NCBI GenBank assembly: GCA_937992055.1
Contig: CALKLQ010000041.1
Location: 23,962 to 87,961 of the forward strand
Origin: an uncultured Clostridia bacterium
GTDB taxonomy: Bacteria > Bacillota > Clostridia > Christensenellales > UBA1242
Direction of reading: 5' to 3'
Length of the DNA: 64,000 bases
Position 1 is the stretch's first letter; each line of letters starts with the position of its first letter. Of the stretch, positions 10,771 to 25,079 are shown piece by piece. Position numbers and translations under genes: made by a program. The notes beneath the pieces were generated by a model that ran no database searches, was not told the origin of the DNA, and saw nothing but the letters and a program-made list of their open reading frames with translations.

Positions 10771-11026
10771 ATTTCCTCATGTATTTAATAATTTTAAAGT
10801 AAGAACCAGTAAATTTTTTTATAATAAAAACTTTGCTAGTTTATTTAAATTTAAAAGTAATTTTACATTTTTTATAATATCATAAAAAGATAAAAATAAC
10901 AAACAAACATTCTACTTTCAAAATTAAAAATGTATATAAAAGTTTTTACGAGTTTTAAAGATAACCTTAAACAATTTACTTGACAAAGTAAACAAGTTAT
11001 AATAAACTATTATAGTTTAAATGTGC

Positions 11027-11065
11027 GGGCTGTTAGCTCAGTTGGTAGAGCAACTGACTCTTAAT
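11027..11065 (+). pseudogene. 5' half of a disrupted chromosomal tRNA-Lys(CUU); attL
   Basis: GGGCTGTTAGCTCAGTTGGTAGAGCAACTGACTCTTAAT ends in the anticodon loop and is followed by unrelated sequence. Joined to 23837..23873 it gives a perfect 76-nt cloverleaf ending in CCA. Confidence 0.9.
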
Positions 11066-11086
11066 AAGATAGCCAGCATTAAATGT

Positions 11087-11162
11087 GGGTCATTAGCTCA
11101 GTTGGCAGAGCACTTGACTCTTAATCAAGGTGTCCGGGGTTCGAGCCCCCGATGACCCACCA
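11087..11162 (+). tRNA. tRNA-Lys (anticodon CUU), element-borne complete copy
   Basis: 76 nt: acceptor GGGTCAT/ATGACCC, D arm TAGCTCAGTTGGCAGAGCA, anticodon arm CTTGA-CTCTTAA-TCAAG, T arm CGGGG-TTCGAGC-CCCCG, encoded CCA. The sequence differs from the disrupted host copy. Confidence 0.92.
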
Positions 11163-11165
11163 CTC

Positions 11166-11192
11166 AAACCCTTATAAAATAAGGGTTTTTTT
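11166..11192 (+). terminator. rho-independent terminator after the element tRNA-Lys
   Basis: AAACCCTTA-TAAAA-TAAGGGTTT followed by a T run. Confidence 0.75.
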
Positions 11193-11224
11193 AATGTGTT
11201 GCATAAAAAATTTTTTTGTTTTTT

Positions 11225-11324
11225 TGACCCTTATTTTACAACTTTTTACTAAAAAAAATTGCTAAAATTTAGACTTTTTTTCGACTACTTTTTTTCGACC
11301 TTTACAAGGGTCAAACAAGGGTCA
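11225..11324 (+). repeat. AAGGGTCA motif cluster (candidate integrase arm-type sites), attL side
   Basis: CAAGGGTCAAACAAGGGTCA at 11305-11324 overlaps the integrase stop codon. An inverted copy TGACCCTT lies at 11225-11232. The same 20-mer recurs at 23770-23789. Confidence 0.55.
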
Positions 11325-12332
11325 ATTTTGCAACTCTATATAATAATCATTATATAGCTTTTTAATTTTTTCTAAAATTTTTGTTTTATCTTCGTAAACA
11401 ACGATATTTGTATATATATCCATAGTGATTCCAATTTCAGAATGTCCCATGTTCATTTGAACTTGTTTTGCCGGAGTTCCTAAATAATATTGATTAGTAG
11501 CATAACTATGTCTAAGACAATGTAACGTTCCTGTAATATTCAACTCCGCAAGATAATCTTTGAACATGTGAGTAACGTAGCTTCCGTTATAGTTAAAAAT
11601 CTTTCCTTCTTTATAAATTAAATTTTTTAAATTTTCTGTTATTCTTATAAATCTATCGGCATTATCTGTTTTGGTTCCCTTTATATGGATAACATTATTG
11701 TTTTTAAAATCTTTGGAAGTCAATGTCAAAGCCTCACTCCTTCTCACTCCTGTTGCTAAATAGAAAAGTATTAGTTTGTAATGTTCATAGTTTGTTTGCT
11801 TTATTTTTGATAATAATTTTTCTTGCTCTTCTATTGTAAAAGCTTTTCTGACATTTTTGATTTTTTTATCTTTAACAACAAGCTTGAACGGGTTCTTTTT
11901 AATAAATTCCAAATCTTCAGCTTTTTGCAAACAGGCATTGAAATATGTAATAATAAGTTCCTTTGTTCTTGTTTTTGGAAGTTTATTTAAATATGGTTGT
12001 AAATTATTTATGGTTATCTCATCAAGATTGTAATTTCCAAAATTTTTAACTATGTAATTTTTTAATAAGCTTTGAATCTCTCTCCCCGTTTGTTCTGCGA
12101 CAAAAGGTTTTTTGTAATTGTCAAACCAAAAGTCCGCCCACGTTTTTAATTTATATATGCAATTCGTTGTTTTGTTCTTTTTTTCCTTCTGCTCTTTTTT
12201 TAGAGCTTTTATTTTTTCATCTCTTTTTTTAACCAGCTTTGACCTATCTTTTGAGTAAACTGAGTATTGTTTAGAATCAAAATAAAATCTAAGTTCAAAT
12301 CTGTTATCTTTTCTATATCTTATTGTAGACAT
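11322..12332 (-). CDS. int: tyrosine recombinase / phage integrase
   Basis: 336 aa. Catalytic blocks ATGVRRSEALTL (Arg), HCLRHSYATNQY (H-x-x-R) and GHSEIGITMDIYTNI (His...Tyr). AGGAGGAGG RBS. Sits beside the split tRNA. Confidence 0.92.
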   Translation of the reverse strand: MSTIRYRKDNRFELRFYFDSKQYSVYSKDRSKLVKKRDEKIKALKKEQKEKKNKTTNCIYKLKTWADFWFDNYKKPFVAEQTGREIQSLLKNYIVKNFGNYNLDEITINNLQPYLNKLPKTRTKELIITYFNACLQKAEDLEFIKKNPFKLVVKDKKIKNVRKAFTIEEQEKLLSKIKQTNYEHYKLILFYLATGVRRSEALTLTSKDFKNNNVIHIKGTKTDNADRFIRITENLKNLIYKEGKIFNYNGSYVTHMFKDYLAELNITGTLHCLRHSYATNQYYLGTPAKQVQMNMGHSEIGITMDIYTNIVVYEDKTKILEKIKKLYNDYYIELQN

Positions 12333-12540
12333 TTCCTCCTCCTTTATTATTTCAGAGTCGGAATTTCCTTTTATAAATGGGTTAGCCTCCCTAATTAACC
12401 TTGTAATTTGTGACCTTTTTCTTTCTTTTACTCCTTGTTTAAAGGCTAAAAATTCATTGCCACTTTTTAAAATATAATTATGAATGTTATTTGCTAATTG
12501 TTGAAAAATTTTTTAATTCTTCCATTATCTCTCTCATTTC

Positions 12541-12885
12541 TTAAATTTTCTTTAGTTTAAATGATTCACTTCTACCGCTTAAGCCTGACAAATAAATTTC
12601 GGCAGTATTTAATAAGTCTTCGTCTAATTGCAATATCATGTCGATACAATTTTTCTGTTGTTCAGTGTACTGCGTTTTAAAAGCTATTTCTTGTTTGACT
12701 TCATTGCCTATTAAATAATCAACAGACACATTAAAATAATTCGCAAGTTTTATAAGAGTTCTTATATCAGGTTCTCTTATGTTATTTTCCCATTTTGATA
12801 TAAGCGTTTGTTTGTATCCAGTAATTTTTGCAATATCTTTTTGTGTTTTTTTATTAATCTTTCGCAATTCTTTAATTTTTAACAT
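12541..12885 (-). CDS. XRE-family HTH regulator (cI-like repressor candidate)
   Basis: 114 aa. N-terminal HTH TQKDIAKITGYKQTLISKWENNIREPDIRTLIKLANYFNVSVDYLIG. Divergent from the + strand early genes. Confidence 0.8.
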   Translation of the reverse strand: MLKIKELRKINKKTQKDIAKITGYKQTLISKWENNIREPDIRTLIKLANYFNVSVDYLIGNEVKQEIAFKTQYTEQQKNCIDMILQLDEDLLNTAEIYLSGLSGRSESFKLKKI

Positions 12886-12951
12886 TTTTTCCTCCTTAAA
12901 ATTAACTTAACACTATTAGTAATAATTTTTTAATATTTTTAATAAAAATAG

Positions 12952-12996
12952 TTGACAAAACGGAATATTTTTCATATATTAATAATAAATATTCCT
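12952..12996 (+). promoter_or_regulatory. sigma-A-type promoter with candidate operator
   Basis: TTGACA (12952-12957), 17-nt spacer, TATATT (12975-12980). The perfect 9-bp inverted repeat GGAATATTT (12962-12970) / AAATATTCC (12988-12996) brackets the -10 box. Confidence 0.5.
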
Positions 12997-13044
12997 ATTA
13001 GGATTATCCTTAAGGTAATCATTAGGAATTTCAAGGAGGTAAAA

Positions 13045-13284
13045 ATGAAAACAACGATAAATAAAGATCAAGTTATTGAAGAGCTAAGAAAAGAAAATCA
13101 AACATTAAAAAATCGACTTGCTTTGATTGAAATAAAAAATGAACTTTCTATCGAAGACAAAATGCAAGCTATTAAGCAATATTTTGAATTTTGTTGTATC
13201 GATTCTACTACTAGCTTAAGAGCAGACGATTATACAAATATCATAACTTTTGAGAAATATTTAAAGGGAGAATTTGAAAAATGA
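13045..13284 (+). CDS. hypothetical protein (79 aa)
   Basis: ATG at 13045 follows AAGGAGG. The track ORF from 12952 begins upstream inside the promoter. Coiled-coil-like N-terminus. Confidence 0.5.
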   Translation: MKTTINKDQVIEELRKENQTLKNRLALIEIKNELSIEDKMQAIKQYFEFCCIDSTTSLRADDYTNIITFEKYLKGEFEK

Positions 13285-13454
13285 AAACAATGTACATTTT
13301 AAAAACAAGCACTTCAAAATTCGTATTTACAGATTTAGAAATGGCTATGAAAAAATTCTATGACTACGAAACTTTGGGACTTCCTGCGAAGGTTATTAAA
13401 TCTGAAGTAGGCTTATTAAATGAAAAACAAACAGTTCTTCACTGTTCTGTATAA
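13281..13454 (+). CDS. hypothetical protein (57 aa)
   Basis: Below the track size cut-off. ATGA start/stop overlap with the previous gene. Reads MKTMYILKTSTSKFVFTDLEMAMKKFYDYETLGLPAKVIKSEVGLLNEKQTVLHCSV. Confidence 0.4.
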   Translation: MKTMYILKTSTSKFVFTDLEMAMKKFYDYETLGLPAKVIKSEVGLLNEKQTVLHCSV

Positions 13455-13463
13455 GAGTAAATG
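13423..13463 (+). repeat. ~41-bp direct repeat, copy A
   Basis: AAAAACAAACAGTTCTTCACTGTTCTGTATAAGAGTAAATG, near-identical to 13845-13886. Contains the hairpin AACAGT/ACTGTT. Confidence 0.8.
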
Positions 13464-13484
13464 AAATTTAAGTAAATCTATAGT

Positions 13485-13724
13485 TTAAATTTTTAAACTC
13501 TTTAAAAGTTCTTTTCTTTTCTCTTCTGTATCTATTTCTAATAGTTCATCGGCGGAAATATCAAAAATAACAGACATTTTTCTAAGATTATCAAAATCTG
13601 GTTTTAACCTTCCCTTTTCCCATAAAGAAACTGTGTCTTGTGAAACATTAAATAGCTTTCCAAATTGAGTTTGATTGAGTTTATTTAAATTTCTATATTC
13701 TTTTATTATTTGATAATATTTCAT
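13485..13724 (-). CDS. XRE-family HTH regulator (small, Cro/cI-type)
   Basis: 79 aa. NQTQFGKLFNVSQDTVSLWEKGRLKPDFDNLRKMSVIFDISADELL is a canonical XRE HTH. Confidence 0.8.
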   Translation of the reverse strand: MKYYQIIKEYRNLNKLNQTQFGKLFNVSQDTVSLWEKGRLKPDFDNLRKMSVIFDISADELLEIDTEEKRKELLKSLKI

Positions 13725-13785
13725 GAATTAATTATATACTAAAGTTTTTGGTATTTAAAAATAACGAAAAATAGTCGTAAAATAA

Positions 13786-13814
13786 TTGACTTACGAATAT
13801 AATTAGTATATAAT
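13786..13814 (+). promoter_or_regulatory. near-consensus sigma-A promoter of the long + strand operon
   Basis: TTGACT (13786-13791), exactly 17 nt, TATAAT (13809-13814). About 300 nt upstream of the first ORF. Confidence 0.65.
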
Positions 13815-13844
13815 ACGAAGAAAGTTAGTAAATAACCACAAATA

Positions 13845-13886
13845 AAAAACAAACAGTGTTGCACTGTTCTGTATAAAGAGCGAATG
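13845..13886 (+). repeat. ~41-bp direct repeat, copy B
   Basis: AAAAACAAACAGTGTTGCACTGTTCTGTATAAAGAGCGAATG. Hairpin AACAGTG/CACTGTT. Lies just downstream of the promoter. Confidence 0.8.
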
Positions 13887-13975
13887 CAATAGGCAAAGGT
13901 ACTTTTCCCTTTCGCTCGTTCCTCCAAAAAAATTAAAGGTGGTGATGCCAGGACAATAAACAACATCAAATTATC

Positions 13976-14042
13976 ACTTTTCGAAACTAGGCTTTGCCTA
14001 GTCAATAGGAATTGACCGCCCTATTCTGATGAGATAGGTCAA
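13976..14042 (+). ncRNA. hammerhead ribozyme, type II topology (candidate)
   Basis: C(11.1)-GAA-A[CTAGGC-TTT-GCCTAG]T-C(17) | [AATAGG-AATTGACCGC-CCTATT]-CTGATGA-G(10.1). All invariant core nucleotides are in the correct order. GUC cleavage triplet with the scissile bond at 14003/14004. Stems I and III are capped and stem II forms from the flanks. Loop I TTGACC is complementary to GGTCAA at 14037-14042. Confidence 0.75.
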
Positions 14043-14118
14043 GCGCGCTTTAAGTTAGCCCACTTTAAAAAGGCAAAAAAAAACAAAAATTAAAATAAAA
14101 AAAAGAAGGTAAAGAAGA

Positions 14119-14415
14119 ATGAATGAATTTATGAGTAAAGGTATAGTCATTGGAAAACAAGAAAGTTATGAGTACGAAGGAAAAACATATTACAAACTTC
14201 CATTATTATTAGGTGTTCCTGATTCGGACGGCCATTTTACTGATAAAGCTGTTGTAGGTTCTGCTAAAGGACAAACTCCAATTTTAAAAGATGAAGAAAT
14301 ATATTTTGGGGCACCAATAATGTGCACAGTGAATGTTAAAACTTTTGATGGCAAAACAACTTATGTTTGCTCTGACGTTCAAATTCTAGAAAAAAAAACA
14401 AAAGTAGAAAAATAG
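14119..14415 (+). CDS. hypothetical protein (98 aa); ssDNA-binding role is only a positional guess
   Basis: First gene of the operon, with an AGAAGG RBS. Small and beta-rich-looking, no TM segment. No motif recognised. Confidence 0.5.
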   Translation: MNEFMSKGIVIGKQESYEYEGKTYYKLPLLLGVPDSDGHFTDKAVVGSAKGQTPILKDEEIYFGAPIMCTVNVKTFDGKTTYVCSDVQILEKKTKVEK

Positions 14416-14462
14416 ATTTGTCAACAATAGACAATCTACCATTTTAAAAAAAAGGAGAAAAA

Positions 14463-14681
14463 ATGGCATATAAAAATTCTAATGGTGATGAACAGTTTAC
14501 ATTAAAAGAGAAAATTGATTATCACAATTCTTGTGCTAACACGGGAAAAACACCTAGCGGTGAAAAACTTTCTTTTAGTGAAAGATATAATCACATGCAA
14601 GCTTCTGCTAGATGTCGTCGCAAATTAGGTACATTTATGAAAACGGTTAATGTTGTAAATTCAACTAATAAGAAAAAATAA
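14463..14681 (+). CDS. hypothetical protein (72 aa)
   Basis: AAGGAG RBS. Basic C-terminus, no TM segment. Confidence 0.5.
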   Translation: MAYKNSNGDEQFTLKEKIDYHNSCANTGKTPSGEKLSFSERYNHMQASARCRRKLGTFMKTVNVVNSTNKKK

Positions 14682-14832
14682 GTTAAAAATAATTTAATAA
14701 GCTGTAAGCCCTAGCCTACTGACTAGGCACAAAAATTGTAGCTTAAGCAATTTTTAAATTTAATAATTAAAATCGAAACTTAAACTAGCTGTGTTGTACT
14801 CATGGCTAGTTTTGTTTCTTAAAAGGAGAAAA

Positions 14833-16932
14833 ATGAAAAAAGTTTTTAAAATTTTGTTATGGATATTATTAATAATTTTTATTCTTTTTTTAATTGCTGA
14901 TTTGCTTTTTGTTATTAAAGAAAAATTAAATTGGAATTTTAGTTTTGGTGAAAATAAAACTTATGAAAAAGAAAAACTCGAAAATGGTTTAACAACGCAA
15001 ATAAATGGTGATTTAACAAAAGAAGAAATTGAAAAGGAAAAAAATGATATTGAAGCACCTTTGCATGATGATATTTTTAAAGATTTTTTAATTTGTGAAA
15101 CTGGCGATTATGTAATAATTTATCGTAAAGTAGAAACAAATGGAAAAATTATTTTTCCAAACTTGTCATTTATTAAAACTGCTAATAATTTACAATTTGA
15201 CGGAACTTTAGGCTTGACTGCTGAAATTGGGACTAATTGGTGGACTGGCGCTCATGATTTCAATAATATAAGGTTTACTTATGATTACTCAGGAAATTTT
15301 AATTATGATAAAAAAATGAGTTGGAATACTGATTGGAAAAATATTTTTGTTTTAGGAATTAAAGGTTTTTTGACTGATATAGGTTCGCAAGACAACTTTG
15401 TTTCATTTCGTAATTTTACTGAAAAATTTTGTAATAACTTTTGGAATATGAATGTTTTTGCTAAAATCGCAATGAATAAACAAAGTGAATTAAATAAACT
15501 ACATGATGTTACAAAAAAATATATCTATCAAAATATTTTGCCTTATTTTCAAAATCTTAATGATAATATTGAGTTTATTATGCCTGATAAAAATTTATCA
15601 ACAGATGTGCGTTTAAGTCAAATAATGAGCTTAACGAATTCATATGCTACATATCTTTGGAAAACAGTTAAAACATCAAATAAGTCAGAAAGTTTTAAAA
15701 ATGTTAATATTTCAAGTTTTTTTGCAAAATTTATTTATGACGAAAATATTTATAAACAATATCCAATACCAGAAAACAAAAAATCTGAATATCCGAATCA
15801 AGAATATTACAAAGTTTATAATTGTCAAATTTTTGCTTCGTGTAGCTATAAATATTTTGATATAGATTTGCCGGGTGAGCCGGTTGTTGATGATGATTAT
15901 GTAGTGGTTTTGCCTCCAGAAGATAATAAAGAATATTGTAAAGTTACAATCAAATTAAAAAATTCTAACTCTTCTGATTTAACTAATTTTATAATTAGTG
16001 AACAACCTGTAAAAATTTCAATTGCTGGTAAAGACCTTGTTTTTGATAGCTTAGAAAAATTAAATTATGGTTGCACTATTGCTTTAGAACAATCTAAGAC
16101 TTATTCCTATTCAATTTTAAGTAATGGTTTGATTTTTGAAAGTTATTCTGGAAATTTTTATATTCAAAATGAAAATTCAACAATTGTAAATTTTAATTAT
16201 ACTTATCAATACGGTTATGCTCTTTGTAAAATTATGCTTCATCCTGTTGGTGAAATTGATTTATCTCAAGTTGATTTGATTAATAACCCTGTAATTATTA
16301 ATTTGAAAAGTAAGGTTAATAACTATAATTATACCTTAACATTTAATTCTTTGGATAAATTTAATAATGGAATTAGCCAATTAATTCATTTAGGTGAATA
16401 TACTTATACGATTTCAAGTCAAGTTTTAAGTTTCTCTCCAGGCAATGGGGATATTAATGTTACAACAGAAAATAGATATTTTAATTTTACTTATACTCAA
16501 ATTACCTCATTTAATTTTTCTTTTAATTGTACAATTGACCAATTTGAGAAGGTACCAGCAGAAACAGATCCAATAAAAGAACATGAGTCTGTGTATTTAA
16601 AGGTTTGTGGACTTGACTTAAATTCTCAGTCTTCGTTTTCATTTTTGGAAAATGTTTTTGGCGAAAGCCTTACAATTTCTTTAATAGTTTTTAAAAACAC
16701 AACTCAAATTGTTTCTTATGGAACTTTTCTATTAGGAACAAACTTAAATGGAAATTGTTTCCGGTCTCTACCAAGTGGCTTTAAAACTTTGGAAAACGGC
16801 GAAACATATACTATTCAATTTATTTTTAATTCTGAAGTAAACACTGGTGTAAGTTATTCAAGTCCTCCAATAGAGTTTACTTATGCAACTTATAAAATTT
16901 CAAGGTTTAATATAACCTTGCAAGAAATTTAA
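14833..16932 (+). CDS. large N-terminally membrane-anchored Asn-rich surface protein
   Basis: The ATG at 14833 follows AAAGGAG, whereas the track start at 14791 is upstream of that RBS. Signal-anchor KILLWILLIIFILFLIADLLFVI, then about 670 aa with no recognised family. Confidence 0.7.
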   Translation: MKKVFKILLWILLIIFILFLIADLLFVIKEKLNWNFSFGENKTYEKEKLENGLTTQINGDLTKEEIEKEKNDIEAPLHDDIFKDFLICETGDYVIIYRKVETNGKIIFPNLSFIKTANNLQFDGTLGLTAEIGTNWWTGAHDFNNIRFTYDYSGNFNYDKKMSWNTDWKNIFVLGIKGFLTDIGSQDNFVSFRNFTEKFCNNFWNMNVFAKIAMNKQSELNKLHDVTKKYIYQNILPYFQNLNDNIEFIMPDKNLSTDVRLSQIMSLTNSYATYLWKTVKTSNKSESFKNVNISSFFAKFIYDENIYKQYPIPENKKSEYPNQEYYKVYNCQIFASCSYKYFDIDLPGEPVVDDDYVVVLPPEDNKEYCKVTIKLKNSNSSDLTNFIISEQPVKISIAGKDLVFDSLEKLNYGCTIALEQSKTYSYSILSNGLIFESYSGNFYIQNENSTIVNFNYTYQYGYALCKIMLHPVGEIDLSQVDLINNPVIINLKSKVNNYNYTLTFNSLDKFNNGISQLIHLGEYTYTISSQVLSFSPGNGDINVTTENRYFNFTYTQITSFNFSFNCTIDQFEKVPAETDPIKEHESVYLKVCGLDLNSQSSFSFLENVFGESLTISLIVFKNTTQIVSYGTFLLGTNLNGNCFRSLPSGFKTLENGETYTIQFIFNSEVNTGVSYSSPPIEFTYATYKISRFNITLQEI

Positions 16933-16956
16933 AAAAAAATAAAAGGAGATAAAAAA

Positions 16957-17190
16957 ATGGATAAAACAAAAATTATATGGACTTCAATATTTGGAGTTGT
17001 TGGAGTAATAGTCGCAACAATATTAATGTGGCTTTGCTTGTATTTAATCGTTCCAAACATAAAGGACGGAACTGATAAACTCTTCAAATGGAATGATTAC
17101 GCTGTGGAGCAAGAGCAAGACGATATCACAGAAACAACTCAAAACTCCCCTAATACTGAAAATATTGAAGTTATAACACCCGCAAATTGA
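16957..17190 (+). CDS. small membrane protein (77 aa)
   Basis: AAGGAG RBS. One long hydrophobic segment IIWTSIFGVVGVIVATILMWLCLYLIV and an acidic C-terminal tail. Confidence 0.6.
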   Translation: MDKTKIIWTSIFGVVGVIVATILMWLCLYLIVPNIKDGTDKLFKWNDYAVEQEQDDITETTQNSPNTENIEVITPAN

Positions 17191-17198
17191 GGTGTTAT

Positions 17199-18770
17199 AT
17201 GAAAAGAAATATTATTTTAATTAGTTGCTCAATTTTAATATTGGCAACAATGGTTTATGGAATTTACATTAAAAATCAAGAAAAAATAAATACTGATTTA
17301 ACAATGCAAAACAACACTTTGATTTTGCAAATAGACTCGACTGTTGATAGATTAAATAAACTACAAGAAGACTATGACCTACTTAAGCAAACTCATGAGA
17401 GCACACTTGCTCAGTTAGATAAAGAACGTAGACAATTTGACTTTGACAGACAAAGATTTACTGAACAAGTGGAAAACTTGAGAGGTCAAGTTTTGGAATT
17501 ATCATTAAACAAAATAGAAAATGAAGAGAGAATAGCAGAACTAGAAGCTGAAATAGAAGACTTAAACCAACAAATAGCAAATTTAGATGCTCAAATTTTA
17601 GCTTTAGAAACTGAAAATGCCGGACTACTTTCAAGTGTTAATAATTATGAAACTCAGATTTCAAACTTGAATGGTCAAATTGACGATATGGTCGCAGAGT
17701 TCAATGCCAAAAATGAACTTTGGCAAAAACTAATTAATGGAACTATTACAGAAATTACCGCAGAAGACCTTGAAGGTGTGACTGAAATTAGACCATATGC
17801 TTTTTACGATTGTCAAACTCTTAGGTCTATAGAATTTTCTAATACAATTACAAAAATTGGTTCGAGTGCATTTTATCAATGTAGTCTTTTGTCTTCAATA
17901 GAAATTCCTGATAATGTAACAACTATTGGGGCTAATGCTTTTTTAAATTGTTTTAATCTTTCCTCAATTAAACTTTCTGATAATCTATCAAATATTCCTA
18001 ATAGTGCTTTCGCAGGTTGTAATAAACTTACTTCAATTGCAATTCCTGATAGTGTTTCAAGTATTAGTTATGAAGCTTTTCAATCTTGTTCGAAATTAAA
18101 CTCTGTTACTTTTGGTGATAATAGCGAACTTACTCAAATTGGTGCTTATGCTTTTCGTTCTTGCGGTAATTTAAATAATGTTATTCTTCCAGTTGCCCTG
18201 ACAAGTATAGGAAACGGTGCTTTTTCGAAATGTTCAAGCTTATCAACAATTAATATTCCAAATAGCGTAACAACTATTGACGCTAATGTTTTTTCTGAAT
18301 GTACCAGTTTGACGTCAATTAAACTTCCTAATAATATAACAAAAATTAGTAGTAATCTTTTTGGAAAGTGTAGTGGTTTGACTTCTATAGAAATTCCTAA
18401 TAATGTGACGATTATTGAAACTGATTCTTTTCAATATTGTACAAATTTATCATCAATAAATATTCCAAATACTGTTACATCTATTGGTCTTCGTGCATTT
18501 TATTATTGTTCTAGCCTTATTTCAATTGAAATTCCTGATAGTGTTGCAAGTATGGATGGACATATATTTTTTGGTTGTTCAAATGAGCTATCAATTATAA
18601 TGAAACGTTCGACTCCTCCTACATGTGCTAATGTTTTATATGGTTTCTATGGAAAAGTCTATGTTCCAGATTCGGCTTTAGAAAGTTATAAAACATCTCC
18701 TGGTTGGTCAGATAAAGCTTCAATAATTTATTCAGTCAGTGAATACGAGGCATTGCAAGAAGTAGCATGA
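17199..18770 (+). CDS. membrane-anchored coiled-coil + BspA-type leucine-rich-repeat protein
   Basis: ATG at 17199 follows GAGG. N-terminal anchor, then a ~150 aa heptad-rich segment (LELSLNKIENEERIAELEAEIEDLNQQIANLDAQILALETEN). About 12 repeats follow of I-x-I-P-x-x-V-T-x-I-G-x-x-A-F-x-x-C-x-x-L-x-S, the LRR_5/BspA type. Confidence 0.8.
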   Translation: MKRNIILISCSILILATMVYGIYIKNQEKINTDLTMQNNTLILQIDSTVDRLNKLQEDYDLLKQTHESTLAQLDKERRQFDFDRQRFTEQVENLRGQVLELSLNKIENEERIAELEAEIEDLNQQIANLDAQILALETENAGLLSSVNNYETQISNLNGQIDDMVAEFNAKNELWQKLINGTITEITAEDLEGVTEIRPYAFYDCQTLRSIEFSNTITKIGSSAFYQCSLLSSIEIPDNVTTIGANAFLNCFNLSSIKLSDNLSNIPNSAFAGCNKLTSIAIPDSVSSISYEAFQSCSKLNSVTFGDNSELTQIGAYAFRSCGNLNNVILPVALTSIGNGAFSKCSSLSTINIPNSVTTIDANVFSECTSLTSIKLPNNITKISSNLFGKCSGLTSIEIPNNVTIIETDSFQYCTNLSSINIPNTVTSIGLRAFYYCSSLISIEIPDSVASMDGHIFFGCSNELSIIMKRSTPPTCANVLYGFYGKVYVPDSALESYKTSPGWSDKASIIYSVSEYEALQEVA

Positions 18771-19612
18771 AAAACAAAGTAACAACTATTACATACTCAG
18801 ATTACGTTAAATATTTAACTGCCAAGCCATATGGAATAAATATTATATTTGGCCAAAAGGGCTCCGGTAAAACGGCATTAAACACTGTCTTTGGACTTTG
18901 GGAAATGGCAATGAGACAACGATACTTACAATGCTTATCTGAGATTGAGCTTTTAAAAGAGGAAAGGGTGCGTGAGTACTCTTCCCCTCCTCAAGCTCAC
19001 TGCGTTTTTACAAGTCCTAACTATTCCATAGTAGACAACTGGAAATTTGGAAGAGGCAAGAAAACATCATATTCATATAACCCCTATCATTTCAATATTC
19101 CAAACATGCGTATTGAGTATGATATTTATCCACCATATTCAACTTTCCATTGCATGGAAGCCCAAGCACCTTTAAATTCCAGGCAATCAAAGAACTTCCC
19201 TTCCGAAACCTCTAGAGCCTATGAAAATGAACGTCATCCAAACTATTTGATTTGGCTAGACTGCCAAAGGTTAGGCTTGGTCGATTTAAACGTTAGAGAA
19301 ATAACGGACTGGTTCATAACTCCAATTGCCCTGGAGCATAAATATAATTCTCTCAATGTAATGACTGGAACAATCTTTCATACCCTTTGCTTTGACAGCC
19401 TTTTAAAAGCAGAAAGATATGTTGAAACTGAGGATATTTTTCTAGGCAAACTTGTAGATTTCGTTTTCGAAGGCGGTTGCGTTTTTAATTGCTACTCCTC
19501 TTTTGGTAATAAAAAAATCTTTTTTGAAACTGATAAAGACTTTGAATACGTTAGCAGTCAAGACCCAAATTCTGCCTCGCTTTTAGCACCAAAAAATTAT
19601 TATAAAGGATAA
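18767..19612 (+). CDS. Zot/pI-like P-loop NTPase (candidate morphogenesis ATPase)
   Basis: 281 aa. Walker A GQKGSGKTA. FHCMEAQ and ERHPNYLIWLDCQ align by eye with the DEAQ and HRHxGxD-hhh-TQ blocks of the Zot family. ATGA overlap with the upstream gene. Confidence 0.6.
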   Translation: MKNKVTTITYSDYVKYLTAKPYGINIIFGQKGSGKTALNTVFGLWEMAMRQRYLQCLSEIELLKEERVREYSSPPQAHCVFTSPNYSIVDNWKFGRGKKTSYSYNPYHFNIPNMRIEYDIYPPYSTFHCMEAQAPLNSRQSKNFPSETSRAYENERHPNYLIWLDCQRLGLVDLNVREITDWFITPIALEHKYNSLNVMTGTIFHTLCFDSLLKAERYVETEDIFLGKLVDFVFEGGCVFNCYSSFGNKKIFFETDKDFEYVSSQDPNSASLLAPKNYYKG

Positions 19613-19617
19613 GAACT

Positions 19618-20085
19618 ATGATACTTAAATTTGAAAGTTTAGAAGAATTAAATAACTACTATTATGACCAACTTAACACCCTCGCCTTTAATTCTCAAAA
19701 TTTTAATAATGCTATCACTTCAATGTTCGAGAAAAACATTTTAAAAGCTTACAAGGCTTCATTTTTGGAACTGACCGCAGACGATAACTTTATCTCAAAA
19801 TATAATTTGAAAAAAGTTAAATACCTACGCAAGCAATTCATTTTAAAATACAAGCTCGAAAAGAAAAAGTTTAAAGCAATATTAAAATTAAGCTCCAAGA
19901 AAGAAAAACGTAAATTAAGAGCATTTATTAAACAGTCTAAAAAACAGGCAAAACAAAAACTTAAAGTAGAGCGAAAAGAAAAACGTCAAATCTTCTTTTC
20001 AAACCTCAAACAAAAACGCAAAGCTCGTTGGGCTAAGTTTATTCAAATCTTTAAAAGGAAAAAACATGAGAAAAAAACAAAATAA
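19618..20085 (+). CDS. hypothetical Lys/Arg-rich protein (155 aa)
   Basis: The C-terminal 90 aa are mostly K/R (KKKFKAILKLSSKKEKRKLRAFIKQSKKQAKQKLKVERKEKRQ...). Confidence 0.55.
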   Translation: MILKFESLEELNNYYYDQLNTLAFNSQNFNNAITSMFEKNILKAYKASFLELTADDNFISKYNLKKVKYLRKQFILKYKLEKKKFKAILKLSSKKEKRKLRAFIKQSKKQAKQKLKVERKEKRQIFFSNLKQKRKARWAKFIQIFKRKKHEKKTK

Positions 20086-20413
20086 AAAACGATTTGCTAA
20101 AAATGAATTTCGTTATAATTATTATACTAAACATGAAAATTTTATTTTTGAAGAAGATGGTGATAATTTTCATTCTTTGGGGTTGACCCATAATAAGCAA
20201 ACAAAAGATAAAAATAAAAAATGGCATAAGAATATGCCATTAAATAAAAACCCTCAAAAGAATAAAACTGAAACATCTTATTTAAGATATGGAGTTATAA
20301 CTCAAAATAAAAAAACTTTTTCAAATAAACCTGATAAGCGCTTTGTTTTTGATGATAGTGATAAAGCAAGTGTAAAGTCAAAAATTAGAAATTATAAAAA
20401 AAAGAGAAAATAA
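20066..20413 (+). CDS. hypothetical Lys-rich protein (115 aa)
   Basis: Overlaps the previous gene by 20 nt. Basic at both termini. Confidence 0.5.
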   Translation: MRKKQNKKRFAKNEFRYNYYTKHENFIFEEDGDNFHSLGLTHNKQTKDKNKKWHKNMPLNKNPQKNKTETSYLRYGVITQNKKTFSNKPDKRFVFDDSDKASVKSKIRNYKKKRK

Positions 20414-20417
20414 AAAA

Positions 20418-20474
20418 ACAAATACTTTTCTGCTTGGGTTACCCCATAGAAGCATAGCTTCTTTAAGTATTTGT
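20418..20474 (+). other. two-tier stem-loop between the structural block and rep
   Basis: ACAAATACTT (20418-20427) pairs with AAGTATTTGT (20465-20474) and encloses the hairpin AGAAGC-ATA-GCTTCT (20448-20462). Confidence 0.5.
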
Positions 20475-20538
20475 TGTAATTATTATATTCTATTTAACTA
20501 AAATTTGTCAACATTTTTTTATAAAAAAAGGAAAAGTG

Positions 20539-21507
20539 ATGAAATACATAGATTTTCTTTTAAAAAAGAGATATTCAAGAAACGTTGTTATTCCTGCTTT
20601 AAAGAAGTTGGGTTTTGAAAATAAAGCCCAAAAACTTGAAGAATGTGGGAATTTTAAACGTTTAGCTGTTTGTAAAAAATGCGGTTGTATTCATTATAAC
20701 GGTGCAAATTCATGCAAAGACCGCTTTTGTCCTGTCTGCCAAAAGAAAAGAGCTTTACTTTGGATATTAAAAGTCTACCCTATTTTTGAAGATTTAATAA
20801 GCCGGGGGTATATAGTCAATTTCATAACTTTGACAGTTCCAGACGGTGACAATTTAAAAGAACGCTTGAATATTTTAAATAATTCTTTTAGATACATGCT
20901 TCATGAAAATTCAAAATCAAGATATTCTTTTAACAATATATATTTGGGTGGAATTCGTTCGCTAGAAGTTAAAAAAGGCAGATTCTCTAATCTTTGGCAT
21001 CCCCACCTTCATATGCTTGTCGTAAAAAAAATAAAGACAGATTTTAGAGAAGATAGAAAACTTTTAACTGAAGCTTGGGCAAATGCCTTAACAAAAACAA
21101 CTGGTATTTATCATTCACCGCAAAAGGTAATTATAGACATTAAAAGTTTGTATCTTGTAGACAAAATAACGGGTCAAAAAAAATACTCTAAATTTGCTAT
21201 TCTAAAGGCTTGTTTGGAAGTCTTTAAATATTTAGTGAAATCAAATTTTGAAGAACTAGCATGTAAAGAACTTATAAAAACCATGTCTAGTATTCGCGGA
21301 ATTAACCCTTGGGGAAACGTCCGCTATCTTCTCCACGACAAAAATATTGAATTAACTATTGAACATGAATTAGACATGTCAGAAAATGAACTAAGTGATA
21401 AAGTCTGTGCAATATGCGGAAACGATGATTTTATTCAAATTAAAAATGTTGGCGTGTATGGTCAAAAAATTTATGATTTAAAAAATAAAAAAACGGAGGT
21501 AAACTGA
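20539..21507 (+). CDS. rep: rolling-circle replication initiator, pC194/Rep_1 (HUH) family
   Basis: Cys cluster CKKCGCIHYNGANSCKDRFCPVCQKKRALLW, HUH motif WHPHLHMLVV and catalytic Tyr motif LEVFKYLVKS. The ATG at 20539 lies one codon inside the track GTG start. Confidence 0.88.
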   Translation: MKYIDFLLKKRYSRNVVIPALKKLGFENKAQKLEECGNFKRLAVCKKCGCIHYNGANSCKDRFCPVCQKKRALLWILKVYPIFEDLISRGYIVNFITLTVPDGDNLKERLNILNNSFRYMLHENSKSRYSFNNIYLGGIRSLEVKKGRFSNLWHPHLHMLVVKKIKTDFREDRKLLTEAWANALTKTTGIYHSPQKVIIDIKSLYLVDKITGQKKYSKFAILKACLEVFKYLVKSNFEELACKELIKTMSSIRGINPWGNVRYLLHDKNIELTIEHELDMSENELSDKVCAICGNDDFIQIKNVGVYGQKIYDLKNKKTEVN

Positions 21508-21508
21508 A

Positions 21509-21874
21509 ATGGCAAAATATATTGAACAATATAAAGCGGAAATTCAAGCATATGAGAGTGCTAAAATAAAAGCTGAAAATGCGGTTTTTAAATATGCGGT
21601 AATTACCCGCATGCTTTTTAATCGTTTGAAATTTATGGTGTCAAAAATCGATGATTGCAAATCTACCCTATTTTTAAAAATTAAAGAAAGTGGTTTGTAT
21701 GAAAACTTTGATGATGAAATAAATGATGTAATTTTTAGAATAGATTATTTGAGAGAAACTTTAAAAGGTGTAATTGATTCGGAAATAGGAAAAGACATAA
21801 TAAAATTAATAGATACTCCTGCCTTTAATCATAAGATAAATAAATTAAAGGAGATTATAGATAATGAAGTCTGA
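21509..21874 (+). CDS. hypothetical protein (121 aa)
   Basis: Starts 1 nt after the rep stop. Helical-looking, no family recognised. Confidence 0.5.
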   Translation: MAKYIEQYKAEIQAYESAKIKAENAVFKYAVITRMLFNRLKFMVSKIDDCKSTLFLKIKESGLYENFDDEINDVIFRIDYLRETLKGVIDSEIGKDIIKLIDTPAFNHKINKLKEIIDNEV

Positions 21875-22718
21875 ACAAGATTCTATAACTAGAAACACCC
21901 TTATAACTTTATTTAATTCTTTTGATGAGGATATCTCTTCAGAAGAAACAATTTCTTCTTTTGAAGAAGAGAAAAAACGTGTACAAGGTTGTCTTCGAAT
22001 GATACAATCAAATTTTGTTCGTCTTGGTTGGCATTTGAAGAAACTAAAAGAGGAATTTAAAGATAATATAACAAAAACATATTTTGAAGCTAGAGGTCAT
22101 TATTGTCGTAACATCTACGATTTTGCCCAACAAGAATTTAATTTGAGCAAATCTTCTGTTAAGAGATTAATTGCAATTGTAGATAAATTTTGTTTAAAAA
22201 ATGATATTGAACTAGTAGAATTAAAAGAAGAATTTAAGCCTTATTCATATTCTCAACTTTCTGAGATGTTGCCACTAAATAATGAACAGCTTTCAAAGGT
22301 TAATTCTGCTATGTCAAAAAGAGAAATAAGAGCTTTAGGGAAAAGTGGCCCGCCGGCGGGCCAAAAAATACAAAGTGAGGAAAATAGCGGTATTCAGCGA
22401 TTTTACAAGTTAAAAAATAAGGATATTCGCTTAAATTTTTTAAAAAACTATCGCAAATGGACCTTAAAAGCAAAGGTTGAAAATCTAAGCTTATACATCT
22501 ATTCTTGCCCACTTTCAAATGGAGATTTAATGTTAATGTTTGAAACAAGATATTTTAATTCAAGTTATGGTAAGGAAGCAGTTTCAAAACTTTTAACTTT
22601 CCAGCGAAAGCAAGATAACTGTATATGCTTGTTTGACACATCTCAAAGTGATTTTTTGCAAAAAATGATAAATCTAGACGTAGGCATTGACCCTGACGTT
22701 GTTTTATCTGATGACTAA
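21864..22718 (+). CDS. hypothetical protein (284 aa)
   Basis: Overlaps the upstream gene by 11 nt. Contains the GC palindrome at 22347-22362. No family recognised. Confidence 0.55.
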   Translation: MKSEQDSITRNTLITLFNSFDEDISSEETISSFEEEKKRVQGCLRMIQSNFVRLGWHLKKLKEEFKDNITKTYFEARGHYCRNIYDFAQQEFNLSKSSVKRLIAIVDKFCLKNDIELVELKEEFKPYSYSQLSEMLPLNNEQLSKVNSAMSKREIRALGKSGPPAGQKIQSEENSGIQRFYKLKNKDIRLNFLKNYRKWTLKAKVENLSLYIYSCPLSNGDLMLMFETRYFNSSYGKEAVSKLLTFQRKQDNCICLFDTSQSDFLQKMINLDVGIDPDVVLSDD

Positions 22719-22727
22719 TAATAAAAA

Positions 22728-22758
22728 CTCATGCAAAAACTTGTATGAGGCTTTTTTT
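22728..22758 (+). terminator. rho-independent terminator of the long operon
   Basis: CTCATGCAA-AAAC-TTGTATGAG (9-bp stem with one G.U) followed by GCTTTTTTT. Confidence 0.75.
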
Positions 22759-22874
22759 AATCGCATAACCTCTCCCCTGGGGTTTCGCAAATATTTTTCT
22801 TTATTAGCCCAAAAAGCATGCAAACAAATGAGAACACAGTCAAATGGACTTCGAAGGCGTGTTCGGGCTTATCT

Positions 22875-23105
22875 CGGCAAACATTAAAAAGCGCGGAGTT
22901 TGAGGTGCGAAACCTCAAGAGGGAATAAGTTTTTCTCGGTAAAACTACTCAAAGCTAAAATGAGCAAATTTGCTTATTCGTGAATGTTTGCCGCTGATTA
23001 ATTAATAACGGCGCTAGCCTATTTAGAAAAAAAAGAAAAGCAGGAGAAACGGGAAAGCTTTGCGCCGTTTCCCTGCTTTTCTCCTATTGGGTTTGCTTGC
23101 AAACC
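22875..23105 (+). other. G+C-enriched multi-hairpin non-coding region (single-strand-origin-like)
   Basis: 11-bp long-range pairing CGGCAAACATT (22875-22885) / AATGTTTGCCG (22983-22993) encloses the hairpin TTGAGGT/ACCTCAA. An ~18-bp hairpin spans 23034-23052 / 23065-23082. A GGGTTTGC/GCAAACCC hairpin spans 23088-23105. Confidence 0.4.
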
Positions 23106-23510
23106 CTTTTAACTTGATACTATAGAAACAAATGGGGCAAAAATATTGAAAATTGACCATTTTTTAAAACCTGCAAATCGCTACAACCCGCAAAAAATAA
23201 GGCATTGAGGCACTTTTAAAGAAAATCAAAAAATGAAATTTTTACATCAGTGTAGTGCAAACCCGCTGAAAATAAGGGATTGAGGCCCCTCAAACCTCAA
23301 AAAAATCACTCGTCACGAGATAAAATCACTCGCCTCAAGTGATTTTTTGGTCTATTTTTACCTATCCCAAAATGGCTGAAAGCCTTATATTTTCTAGCAA
23401 AAACGCACTTCCGCAATTCTCAAAATCACAAAAATTCAATTTTTGTTGATTTTTGTTAATTTTCTGTAAAAACCAACCTTTTGATAGTTTATGTTTAAAT
23501 TTGACTATAA

Positions 23511-23562
23511 AAATACAATATATGGTATAACTTGATATATATAAATACTATATATTGTATTT
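23511..23562 (+). promoter_or_regulatory. candidate double-strand origin (dso): hairpin with CTTGATA nick motif in the loop
   Basis: 17-bp stem 23511-23527 / 23546-23562 (one G.T). The 18-nt loop TAACTTGATATATATAAA carries AACTTGATA, the pC194/phiX174-type nick sequence. A second AACTTGATA lies at 23111-23119. Confidence 0.6.
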
Positions 23563-23769
23563 ATTAAGCTTTTATACCAAGTTTAAAACTATTTTCCATA
23601 ATATTAATAAAATAAAAAGGCTAAGTCATTGACCTAGCCTTTAAAGTATCAATAGCCTAATGACGATGCTAACACATAGCATTTACCTAGATAATGGCGT
23701 TTATATTAGGACTTACTTTGATACTCAATATTATCATATGCAAAAATCTTTGTCAATATAATTATATTT

Positions 23770-23789
23770 CAAGGGTCAAACAAGGGTCA
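23770..23789 (+). repeat. AAGGGTCA tandem motif (candidate integrase arm-type site), attR side
   Basis: CAAGGGTCAAACAAGGGTCA, identical to 11305-11324. Confidence 0.55.
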
Positions 23790-23826
23790 GGACTCTCAAT
23801 GCCTTATAAATAAAGGTATAAATTTC

Positions 23827-23873
23827 GACTCTTAATCAGTGGGTCCGGGGTTCGAGTCCCCGACAGCCCACCA
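23827..23873 (+). pseudogene. 3' half of tRNA-Lys(CUU), copy 1; attR of the 12.8 kb element
   Basis: GACTCTTAATCAGTGGGTCCGGGGTTCGAGTCCCCGACAGCCCACCA. Completes the 5' half at 11027-11065. Confidence 0.9.
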
Positions 23874-23876
23874 CTC

Positions 23877-23902
23877 AAACCCTTATTTTATAAGGGTTTT
23901 TT
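23877..23902 (+). terminator. terminator after tRNA 3' half copy 1
   Basis: AAACCCTTA-TTTTA-TAAGGGTTT plus a T run. Same stem as the terminator at 11166-11192, with the loop inverted. Confidence 0.7.
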
Positions 23903-24135
23903 ATAACATAAAACTGAACATATAAAATGCCCAGCATGTTAAATATAATTTTTTCTTCTTTTAAATAGTTTTAATACAACTAAATAGATTGTTTATTAAC
24001 GGGAATTAAATTTTTCCCTCTACTTATATAGGGAGTAGTAATACACTAAACCTAGTTTTAGTTAGATATTTAAGGGAGTGTAGAGATTTGTAAGAACAAA
24101 TTTTTATTTGAAATTTAATAGTTTTATAATTTTAT

Positions 24136-24162
24136 ATAAAAAAACCTGCAATTTTGCAGGTT
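24136..24162 (-). terminator. rho-independent terminator for 24192..24716
   Basis: Minus strand reads AACCTGCA-AAAT-TGCAGGTT followed by TTTTTTT. Confidence 0.7.
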
Positions 24163-24191
24163 AATTTTTATTAAATTGAAGGTTCATCATC

Positions 24192-24716
24192 TTATCTTGA
24201 CATTCCATCTAAAATTTCGTCTTCTTTTTGTTTTTGAGTTATGTAGCTTTTATCATTAAAAATTTTTTCAAAATCTTTTAACTGTTTTATTGATACTTTA
24301 TTTTTGTCACCAATTAGTTTTTTTACAATATTATTTTTTATAATAAGATTATCAATAAACCAAAAACCCGAAATAAATTCTTCTAAAGTTTTCGCTTCAT
24401 AATTATCTATTCTAGTTTTTGCGAGTGCATAATCGTAGTAACCGTTCCAACCATTAGCGTCATAGCTATAATCATTTTTAGCAAGTTCTTCTTCTTCATC
24501 TTCTTTTGTTACTGCATTAGTAGTTATAGTGTTATTAGAAACATAATATGCTTTTCTTGGTTTATTAGGACTTACAATTGCAATATTATATTGTAATATG
24601 TCCATCATTTCCTCATCACCATCTCTATCAATGACAGGTTCTTCTCCAACTTTTGTTAGAACAACATAAACATTATCTAAATTTACTAATGTTTCATCAT
24701 TAAATTTATTTACCAT
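24192..24716 (-). CDS. hypothetical acidic protein (174 aa)
   Basis: The ATG at 24716 follows AAGGAG, whereas the track start at 24737 is upstream of that RBS. No family recognised. Confidence 0.55.
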   Translation of the reverse strand: MVNKFNDETLVNLDNVYVVLTKVGEEPVIDRDGDEEMMDILQYNIAIVSPNKPRKAYYVSNNTITTNAVTKEDEEEELAKNDYSYDANGWNGYYDYALAKTRIDNYEAKTLEEFISGFWFIDNLIIKNNIVKKLIGDKNKVSIKQLKDFEKIFNDKSYITQKQKEDEILDGMSR

Positions 24717-24950
24717 ATTAATACTCCTTATTAACAATAATATAACATTTAAACTTCGTCATGTCAATAGGGGTGAAAGATTAATTTTATTATATGCACT
24801 TAATCTTTCCTAATAAAAACAAAATTTTCTAATAATACTAAGAAAACTTGAACGATTTTTATACTATATAACACGAGTTTTGTGAGTGATATAAGAGGTT
24901 TTAAGGGCTTTGATAACACGAAAAACACTATCAAAAACTTTTATTTTGCT

Positions 24951-24995
24951 TCTCTTAATCAGTGGGTCCGGGGTTCGAGTCCCCGACAGCCCACC
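24951..24995 (+). pseudogene. 3' half of tRNA-Lys(CUU), copy 2 (orphan)
   Basis: CTCTTAATCAGTGGGTCCGGGGTTCGAGTCCCCGACAGCCCACCA, identical to 23829-23873. Followed by its own terminator AAACTAGG-TAAT-CCTAGTTTTTTT. Confidence 0.9.
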
Positions 24996-25079
24996 ACAAA
25001 ACTAGGTAATCCTAGTTTTTTTAATATAAAAAAAGCCCATAAGAGCTTTTTATTTAATTTATGTTTTAAAAATTTAATG

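Follow-up and report, generated by a model that had tools for sequence, protein, structure and literature searches.

The subject of this work is a 64,000-nt stretch of contig CALKLQ010000041.1 (GCA_937992055.1; the window in the following), which belongs to metagenome-type data of an uncultured Clostridia bacterium (Christensenellales UBA1242) and in which a chromosomal gene for tRNA-Lys(CUU) (tRNA A) is split in the anticodon loop by an integrative element of 12,771 bp (window 11066-23836) that carries a tRNA-Lys(CUU) gene of its own (tRNA B). The 5' half of tRNA A ends with the 10-bp core GACTCTTAAT, beyond which the sequence continues as AAGATAGCC, which is non-tRNA sequence, and at the far end of the element the copy of the core at 23827 is directly followed by CAGTGGGTCCGGGGTTCGAGTCCCCGACAGCCCACCA. 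Joining 11027-11065 to 23837-23873 produces a 76-nt tRNA-Lys(CUU) in which all stem pairs are Watson-Crick; ARAGORN called no tRNA at either half of tRNA A as they stand in the window. The two junctions share exactly 10 bp of identity: the core is made up of the two final bases in the 5' strand of the anticodon stem, the anticodon loop CTCTTAA (7 nt) and one further base, and because the homology ends there, neither junction rebuilds a tRNA. The core is present three times in the window (11056, 11116 and 23827), where ~0.19 copies would be expected and where none of 100 shuffles reached three; the second of these copies, at 11116-11125, lies inside tRNA B.

tRNA B is the sole tRNA that ARAGORN calls in the 64-kb window. 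It differs from tRNA A at 13 of 76 positions (4-6/67-69, 27-28/42-43, 20, 45 and 60): ten of these differences compensate each other in five pairs, which belong to the acceptor and anticodon stems, and the remaining three are found in the D loop (20), the variable loop (45) and the T loop (60), with the anticodon loops of both tRNAs being identical. Were the host 5' half combined with the 3' half of the element tRNA, the acceptor stem would contain one mismatch and two G-U pairs and the anticodon stem two mismatches. A first reading of this DNA made from its letters alone (the sequence-only reading) had stated that the host 5' half ends at 11065 and is not restored by the element, that the attP core measures only 10 bp and that a complete 76-nt tRNA-Lys(CUU) with its own terminator follows 21 nt past the junction, and our analysis agrees with it on all of these; the ARAGORN run that it had proposed for the window returned exactly one tRNA, the tRNA-Lys(CUU) at 11087-11162. 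Its further statement that the acceptor, D and T stems of the two tRNAs differ is correct for the acceptor stem, whereas the D and T stems are identical and it is the anticodon stem, which had gone unmentioned, that differs as well.

Upstream of the tRNA A 5' half lie two overlapping candidate pairs of promoter-like hexamers (Table 1), and this promoter-like sequence is identical ahead of the intact gene in an element-free genome (see below); the hexamers at 10975-11008 would be the putative promoter of the host gene. The combination TTGACA-17-TATAAT was ruled out as host promoter, as these two hexamers are spaced by 12 nt. Within the spacer that separates the core from tRNA B, the promoter scan revealed no promoter-like site. 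The predicted fold of a read-through RNA (11012-11195) retains the tRNA B cloverleaf. In the same predicted fold, GGCUGUUAG of the remaining host 5' half is paired to the AGAUAGCC region of the spacer, and tRNA B is free to fold; given that the spacer is not conserved, this pairing may be due to chance. A hairpin also follows the 3' half of tRNA A (23877-23902) and is near-identical to that found after tRNA B; it was not called in the terminator scan, its T-run appearing to be one T below the scan rule.

Table 1. Features of the split tRNA-Lys(CUU) locus, the integrated element and the adjoining older debris (window coordinates).
Feature	Coordinates	Strand	Remarks
Promoter-like hexamers upstream of tRNA A 5' half	10975-11008	+	TTTACT-17-TATAAT and TTGACA-17-TAAACT; overlapping candidates, each 10/12 consensus matches
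tRNA A 5' half	11027-11065	+	acceptor 5' strand, D arm, anticodon-stem 5' strand, anticodon loop; reads GGGCTGTTAGCTCAGTTGGTAGAGCAACTGACTCTTAAT
attL copy of core GACTCTTAAT	11056-11065	+	last 10 nt of tRNA A 5' half
Element spacer AAGATAGCCAGCATTAAATGT	11066-11086	+	21 nt, between crossover core and tRNA B
Complete tRNA-Lys(CUU), tRNA B	11087-11162	+	ARAGORN; Rfam tRNA 68.9 bits (threshold 29 bits)
Core inside tRNA B	11116-11125		second copy of GACTCTTAAT
Intrinsic-terminator-like hairpin and T-run after tRNA B	11166-11195	+	hairpin plus T-run at 11166-11188; hairpin kept in relatives
Candidate arm-type integrase sites, P' arm (int side)	11225-11324		AAGGGTCA at 11225-11232 (-); direct pair AAGGGTCAAACAAGGGTCA at 11306-11324 (+)
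Tyrosine integrase, 336 aa	11322-12332	-	PF00589 3.9e-14, PF14659, phrog_1 2.6e-48
Two HTH_3 (cI/Cro-type) regulators	12541-12885 and 13485-13724	-	PF01381 1.3e-17 and 1.9e-12
Rightward element genes	14119-22718	+	include proteins of 98, 72, 713 and 77 aa without family; also 121 and 284 aa
BspA-type leucine-rich repeat (LRR) protein, 527 aa	17187-18770	+	PF13306 8.8e-83; coiled-coil N-terminal part
P-loop protein, 281 aa	18767-19612	+	Walker A GQKGSGKT
Rep_1 rolling-circle initiator	20536-21507	+	PF01446 8.8e-23
Candidate arm-type integrase sites, P arm (far side)	23771-23789	+	AAGGGTCAAACAAGGGTCA
attR copy of core GACTCTTAAT	23827-23836	+	right element end by convention
tRNA A 3' half, displaced	23837-23873	+	
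Stretch of ~1.1 kb with 181-aa open reading frame (ORF; 24192-24737, -)	23874-24951		bounded by the tRNA and a second 3' fragment
Older displaced fragment	24952-24996	+	exact 45-nt copy of CTCTTAAT plus tRNA A 3' half; 0 expected by chance
Own terminator of older fragment	~25001-25022		
Deduced attP junction sequence			GGTATAAATTTCGACTCTTAATAAGATAGCC
attB junction sequence			GCAACTGACTCTTAATCAGTGGG

The element-free allele and copies of the element in other assemblies

Exact look-ups of the flanking host proteins retrieved lysogens only. An empty site was reached through a protein that shares a 90%-identity cluster with the flanking glycosyltransferase and led to contig CAYBFS010000017.1 (GCA_964308545.1; L172) with the gene order HisRS, 181-aa ORF, tRNA and glycosyltransferase and without the element. 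ARAGORN calls one tRNA-Lys(CUU) at this locus, the sequence of which is exactly that of the two window halves joined, and when 11066-23836 is removed from the window the alignment with L172 (1314 of 1330 positions aligned) runs straight across the junction. The attB implied by the sequence-only reading is therefore the one present in an empty-site relative: tRNA A is intact there, with 11065 joined directly to 23837. Neither tRNA B nor the spacer, the arm repeat or the right end of the element was found in the 21-kb L172 locus, so that tRNA B belongs to the element and is not a chromosomal gene of this locus, again as the earlier reading had it.

Assemblies from ERZ918380, ERZ28657146 and JGI 3300029620 contain the element in 100% identical form, together with the same attL or attR. 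A scan of GTDB genomes, using the sequence from the D arm to the anticodon loop as query, yielded at least 120 loci from many phyla; among the matches listed, none was syntenic with the host genes of the window and no empty site was present, and the scan did find a locus (L061) that is described below. A further copy of the element, 98.6-99.6% identical, is contained in the Logan contig ERR13612460_2874 (L005 11960-12063, L003 11207-11237) and is devoid of the region corresponding to window 13468-13844, in which the 79-aa HTH gene lies. At its right end this copy is followed by a tRNA 3' half with the acceptor strand AAGGTGC and then by the start of a 5S rRNA (truncated Rfam match, 24.6 bits, E = 0.004), whilst the other end of the contig is located exactly one base past GACTCTTAAT inside tRNA B; a stop at this position implies a branch at the internal core in the k=31 graph.

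Organisation of attP in the element and its relatives

We found 16 full-length homologues of the integrase (56-74% identity), mostly encoded on contigs of 10-17 kb, and no relatives of it in IMG/VR. Two of these homologues are located on circular contigs: L128 (integrase 74% identical, terminal overlap of 127 nt), of which L129 from another sample is a circular permutation, and L132 (67%, terminal overlap of 119 nt). In L167 (71%), element genes are present on either side of int and attP. L128, L132 and L167 exhibit one layout, which starts with the arm repeat CAAGGGTCAAA[CT]AAGGGTCA and has the naked GACTCTTAAT ~40 nt further on; behind a spacer of 20-30 nt comes a complete tRNA-Lys(CUU) of the B type with a hairpin after it, and another arm repeat separates this hairpin from int. 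In a four-way alignment that also includes the window, the arm repeats, the naked core and the tRNA are kept, with the spacer varying in both length and sequence; the conservation of the naked core next to a diverged spacer points to selection acting on the core. Judged from this comparison, the tRNA gene lies inside attP. The repeats that would correspond to arm-type sites in the window show a matching distribution: the 19-mer AAGGGTCAAACAAGGGTCA occurs exactly twice (11306 and 23771; 0 expected), flanking the joined ends, and the 8-mer AAGGGTCA six times (1.4 expected), with five of the six copies at the ends of the element. Integrase binding at these arm repeats is a prediction from their placement.

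Two further observations concern this family of elements. A conserved block, CCYTTWWAAATAAAG, precedes the naked core closely in the window (23800-23826) as well as in the aligned regions of L128, L132 and L167, and resembles the terminator hairpin found after the tRNA: it may be the relic of a tRNA-terminator module, or else a functional terminator or bending site in attP. Moreover, a Rep_1-bearing element with a more distant integrase (42% identity; L170 11125-11201) adjoins a tRNA-Val(UAC) gene with promoter-like sequence upstream, which means that the integrase family targets more than one tRNA.

With a GC content of 0.29 the element does not stand out from its flanks. Pfam and PHROGs yielded no capsid, terminase, portal or tail family for any of its proteins, and the P-loop protein and the small proteins gave no Pfam or PHROG family even at relaxed thresholds. 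The set of homologues of the P-loop protein is tiny, and its AlphaFold model (mean predicted local distance difference test score 34.5) is uninformative on a Zot-like fold. In a phage collection, the Rep protein has relatives only among the replication proteins of metagenomic 'Inovirus sp.' records, and this at a weak 26-28% identity; a rolling-circle initiator is a feature of filamentous phages, but is also present in many plasmids and is hence non-diagnostic. On the question of a temperate phage, the observations comprise cI/Cro-type regulators, an integrase and circular relatives of 14.5 kb as well as the lack of recognised virion genes. The safe description is that of an integrative rolling-circle element. 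The 527-aa LRR protein is a candidate surface or host-interaction protein; LRR proteins are encoded in the same position in L128 and L169. Elsewhere in the window, a tmRNA gene with the tag peptide ANNNYGAVAA is found at 54003-54354 (-).

The layout extends beyond the relatives of this integrase. Scanning for the pattern of core, 15-44 nt and tRNA-Lys 5' half, we obtained one locus from IMG/VR and 30 loci from the JGI metagenome collection; two of the latter are plain tandem tRNA genes, and the other 28 exhibit a core copy, truncated or naked, directly upstream of a complete tRNA-Lys(CUU). The largest group among these loci forms a second family (L141, L143, L144, L146, L149, L151, L155, L156, L158, L161, L164 and L166, together with L061 (502-2438) from GTDB), in which the host 5' half and GACTCTTAAT are followed by a shared 34-nt spacer (CATACGCTCCG...), a complete tRNA-Lys(CUU), TGTCTAAAA arm repeats and an integrase. 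This integrase of 437 aa is 68-80% identical within the group and ~25% identical to the window integrase over the catalytic domain. Only two tRNA types occur in the second family, one of them identical to tRNA A, and the 5' halves that precede them carry ~10 different acceptor sequences: this is to be expected if the halves stem from a range of hosts and the tRNA moves together with the element. A third group (L136, L147, L153 and L163) encodes yet another integrase; in L153 (1355-1550), two successive tRNA-Lys 5' halves, each with GACTCTTAAT and a 23-nt spacer, precede the complete tRNA, which is the pattern expected from serial integrations into a previously supplied tRNA. By sequence comparison, the same layout is thus used by at least two unrelated integrase families. 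In the soil loci L137, L139, L150, L160 and L162 and in L140 and L154, a truncated tRNA-Lys(CUU) that reaches the variable loop is followed by a complete tRNA 13-34 nt further on; a different crossover position or older decay may account for these.

Mechanism, known systems and alternative explanations

The explanation that we regard as quite probable overall is that a mobile rolling-circle element split tRNA A by recombination at a 10-bp core and carries a complete replacement, tRNA B, in its attP. The tyrosine integrase would recombine the attP core with the same 10 bp in tRNA A, presumably by binding to the arm repeats and performing a lambda-type exchange. Integration would place the co-oriented tRNA B, 21 nt past the core, behind the promoter of the host gene, from which it would then be transcribed; the host 5' half and the spacer would form a 5' leader for removal by RNase P, and the mature tRNA B would complement the lost isoacceptor. 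The benefit of such an arrangement could be that only the anticodon loop, which is common to all tRNA-Lys(CUU) genes, must match, making hosts with incompatible acceptor and anticodon stems accessible. A whole tRNA would be needed for this because a host/element hybrid would be mismatched.

A number of points weigh against this explanation. Expression of tRNA B and functional complementation by it are predictions, and the replacement may be dispensable depending on the number of tRNA-Lys(CUU) and tRNA-Lys(UUU) genes of the host: Bacillus subtilis decodes AAG with tRNA-Lys(UUU) alone. The attP layout is known from relatives only, and the exact attP junction gave no match in IMG/VR, where a free form of the exact element was thus not found. 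The right junction of the Logan copy, which suggests a different tRNA-Lys(CUU) target and is consistent with a match being needed in the anticodon loop only, was seen in a single contig. The family is also mixed in its mode of integration, as two of its members look classical: L131 (integrase 69% identical) adjoins a lone tRNA that has a promoter of its own and lacks a 5' remnant, and the attP of L169 (59%) holds only a 3' tRNA segment between the arm repeats. Finally, as regards the viral status of the element, its gene content makes a small filamentous-phage-like virus a possible identity.

Comparison with described systems places the locus next to tRNA-dependent lysogeny, in which a tyrosine integrase uses a core of ~10 bp in a host tRNA gene, no tRNA is rebuilt and the cognate tRNA of the phage is needed for survival of the lysogen, as tested genetically (Guerrero-Bustamante & Hatfull 2024, PMC10865867). 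Examples are Fionnbharth (subcluster K4), the cluster L phages and Gaia; so far the phenomenon has been demonstrated only in actinobacteriophages, its prevalence elsewhere having been left open by the authors (PMC10865867). The similarities to these phages (PMC10865867) are a lambda-like tyrosine integrase with arm-type sites (candidates here) flanking the attP core, an attB in a host tRNA gene with a core of ~8-17 bp (10 bp both in Fionnbharth and here), the lack of a rebuilt tRNA at attL or attR and the existence of close relatives (integrase 59-78% identical) that use the classical rebuilding mode. At the level of sequence, three of the four defining features of tRNA-dependent lysogeny are found at our locus, namely a tyrosine-family integrase with its attB in a tRNA gene, no rebuilt tRNA and an element-borne cognate tRNA; the fourth, an essential host tRNA and hence an element tRNA on which survival of the integrant depends, is a feature of the actinobacteriophage system that may or may not extend to tRNA B. 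The differences lie in the position of the tRNA, the target, the host and the carrier. In Fionnbharth, the tRNA gene is located elsewhere in the genome, where it overlaps gene 37 in opposite orientation and is served by a promoter of its own that has been demonstrated, whereas here it is found inside attP, 21 nt from the crossover and in the orientation of the host gene, with the consequence that the core is duplicated within attP. The target is tRNA-Lys(CUU) as opposed to the UUU isoacceptor of the actinobacteriophage system, the host is a low-GC uncultured gut member of the Bacillota as opposed to Actinobacteria, and the carrier is a 12.8-kb Rep_1 element without recognisable tailed-phage genes as opposed to a phage.

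Two other reports are relevant here. The prophage Lj965 of Lactobacillus johnsonii, a Bacillota host (Ventura et al. 2003-2004, as cited in PMC10865867), reportedly does not rebuild the tRNA at the junction and encodes a cognate tRNA, making it a possible case outside the Actinobacteria; according to its sequence record, Lj965 is a 40-kb tailed prophage whose four tRNA genes (Ser, Glu, Tyr and Phe, at 12.8-13.4 kb) lie ~11.5 kb from the int/att end and outside attP. For phage-related sequences of Sinorhizobium meliloti, inactivation of a host tRNA gene upon integration and supply of a similar isoacceptor of foreign origin was described in 2024 (PMC11476347), in this case for Alphaproteobacteria hosts and different elements. 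The locus also resembles classical anticodon-loop elements (sublocation scheme of Williams 2002; Islander, PMC4383910) in that the crossover takes place in the loop, int is found beside an intact tRNA and the displaced 3' fragment is distal. In a classical attP, however, only the 3' part of a tRNA is contiguous with the core and a hybrid gene is rebuilt, whereas the core used here runs into non-tRNA spacer, leaving the host gene split; the attP of L169 is exactly of the classical kind, as is probably an older event at the locus of the window. The mechanism has therefore been known since 2024 and is not new, whilst the compact form embedded in attP, the host group and the carrier are.

The disrupt-and-replace idea put forward in the sequence-only reading is supported by the empty site, the absence of tRNA B from it and the attP layout of the relatives, and the departure from classical rebuilding that it had noted is real; as a strategy this is not a novelty, having been described experimentally in 2024 (PMC10865867). 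The addiction-like dependence of the host on the element that it had derived from this idea is not supported: if the element excised within the 10-bp core, tRNA A would be regenerated exactly, and a cell losing the element in the ordinary way would therefore retain the gene.

Of the alternatives, the one that survives best accepts the integration as described but holds that tRNA B is not a needed replacement, since tRNA-Lys(UUU) or another CUU copy would read AAG, and that it is either a captured leftover or cargo serving codon supply or countering tRNA-cleaving defences; we consider this unlikely, though not to the point of neglecting it. In its favour, the window holds only one tRNA, and defence evasion has been raised as a possible selective force (PMC10865867). 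Against such evasion, the anticodon loops of tRNAs A and B are identical, which offers no sequence escape from an anticodon-loop nuclease. A locus from the second family, on the other hand, appears to present the situation that this alternative envisages, with a non-functional tRNA-Lys(CUU) beside an intact tRNA-Lys(UUU): in L164 (200-360), a host 5' half (CCGCCTT), core and spacer are followed by an element 5' half (GGGCTGT), core and host 3' half (AAGGCGG), with no element in between, and this scar-like arrangement lies within a tRNA cluster, right after the intact tRNA-Lys(UUU). It could have arisen through excision via the internal core or could be an assembly collapse, and we give it little weight because the coverage is 2.7x and the shared repeat of at least 59 nt is collapsible by an assembler. 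The strongest objection to a dispensable tRNA B lies in its conservation: the tRNA and its position beside the core have been kept while the spacers and the other flanks diverged, and recurrence of the layout with an integrase family of ~25% identity argues for selection on the tRNA at exactly this place.

Much less probable still, and to our minds refuted by the empty site, is a classical integration in which tRNA B would be the rebuilt host gene and the 39-nt 5' half debris of an earlier event. An intact tRNA beside int and a 3' fragment at the far end do look classical, and the locus does hold debris of an older event (24952-24996); yet the empty site contains tRNA A and not tRNA B, with 11065 joined to 23837, the 3' fragment has an acceptor strand (ACAGCCC) complementary to that of the 5' half (GGGCTGT) and not to that of tRNA B (GGGTCAT), and the circular relatives carry a whole tRNA together with a naked core. 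An assembly artefact, i.e. tRNA-like repeats mis-joined in a metagenome assembly, has a negligible probability: tRNA repeats do break or mis-join assemblies, as at the Logan contig ends and in L164, but mis-assembly is ruled out by the identical junctions in separate assemblies from three other samples and with different assemblers, and beyond this the element-free allele was assembled cleanly and related elements share the layout.

History of the locus and turnover of tRNA genes

The surroundings of tRNA A bear traces of further events. Both the ~1.1-kb stretch downstream of the 3' half and the second 3' fragment that bounds it (Table 1) are also present in the element-free L172; the 181-aa ORF encoded therein gave no family match in Pfam or PHROGs. 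To judge from its boundaries, an older, classical integration probably left this stretch behind as a decayed remnant. In that event, the 3' half of tRNA A and its terminator would be derived from an element as well, which would explain the near-identical hairpins found after tRNAs A and B. The orthologous locus of a sister species whose HisRS is 91% identical (L173 15663-16431 and ~11724-12089, also L175) contains an intact A-type tRNA, behind which lie second-family arm repeats and a truncated integrase (77% identical, residues 301-387), with a further copy of the core and 3' half 4.3 kb away: this is a decayed element, and its tRNA now appears to act as the resident gene. Elements have evidently struck this locus more than once, and the tRNAs they bring in may turn into resident genes.

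These observations lead us to a more tentative proposal, which we regard as possible but rather doubtful, namely that attP has two usable cores: the naked core would serve to 'replace' in any tRNA-Lys(CUU) gene and the internal core to 'rebuild' in the classical way in hosts with compatible stems, repeated rounds would leave arrays of 5' halves, and decay would swap the resident tRNA gene permanently. Hints in this direction are the classical-looking junction of L131, the end of the Logan contig one base past the internal core, the double 5' halves of L153, the locus of the sister species and the identity of tRNA A with a tRNA of the second family.

As for practical consequences, island-mapping tools that expect an 'intact tRNA plus 3' fragment' would place the left boundary of such an element off by ~60 nt and take the foreign tRNA as the host gene. 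The minimal integration module, consisting of attP, tRNA and int, measures ~1.3 kb, is self-contained and is independent of the stem sequences of the host; such a compact module suggests itself as a broad-host-range integration cassette for gut Bacillota that are hard to engineer. Taken together with its circular relatives and ~28 more loci from metagenomes, the locus indicates that for tRNA-Lys(CUU) this logic is common among bacteria of the gut and the environment, and that the layout either arose in unrelated integrase families or has spread among them. The layout provides a concrete route for the horizontal replacement of conserved tRNA genes, and if the proposal of two usable cores were true, mobile elements would regularly drive the turnover of tRNA genes in gut Bacillota.

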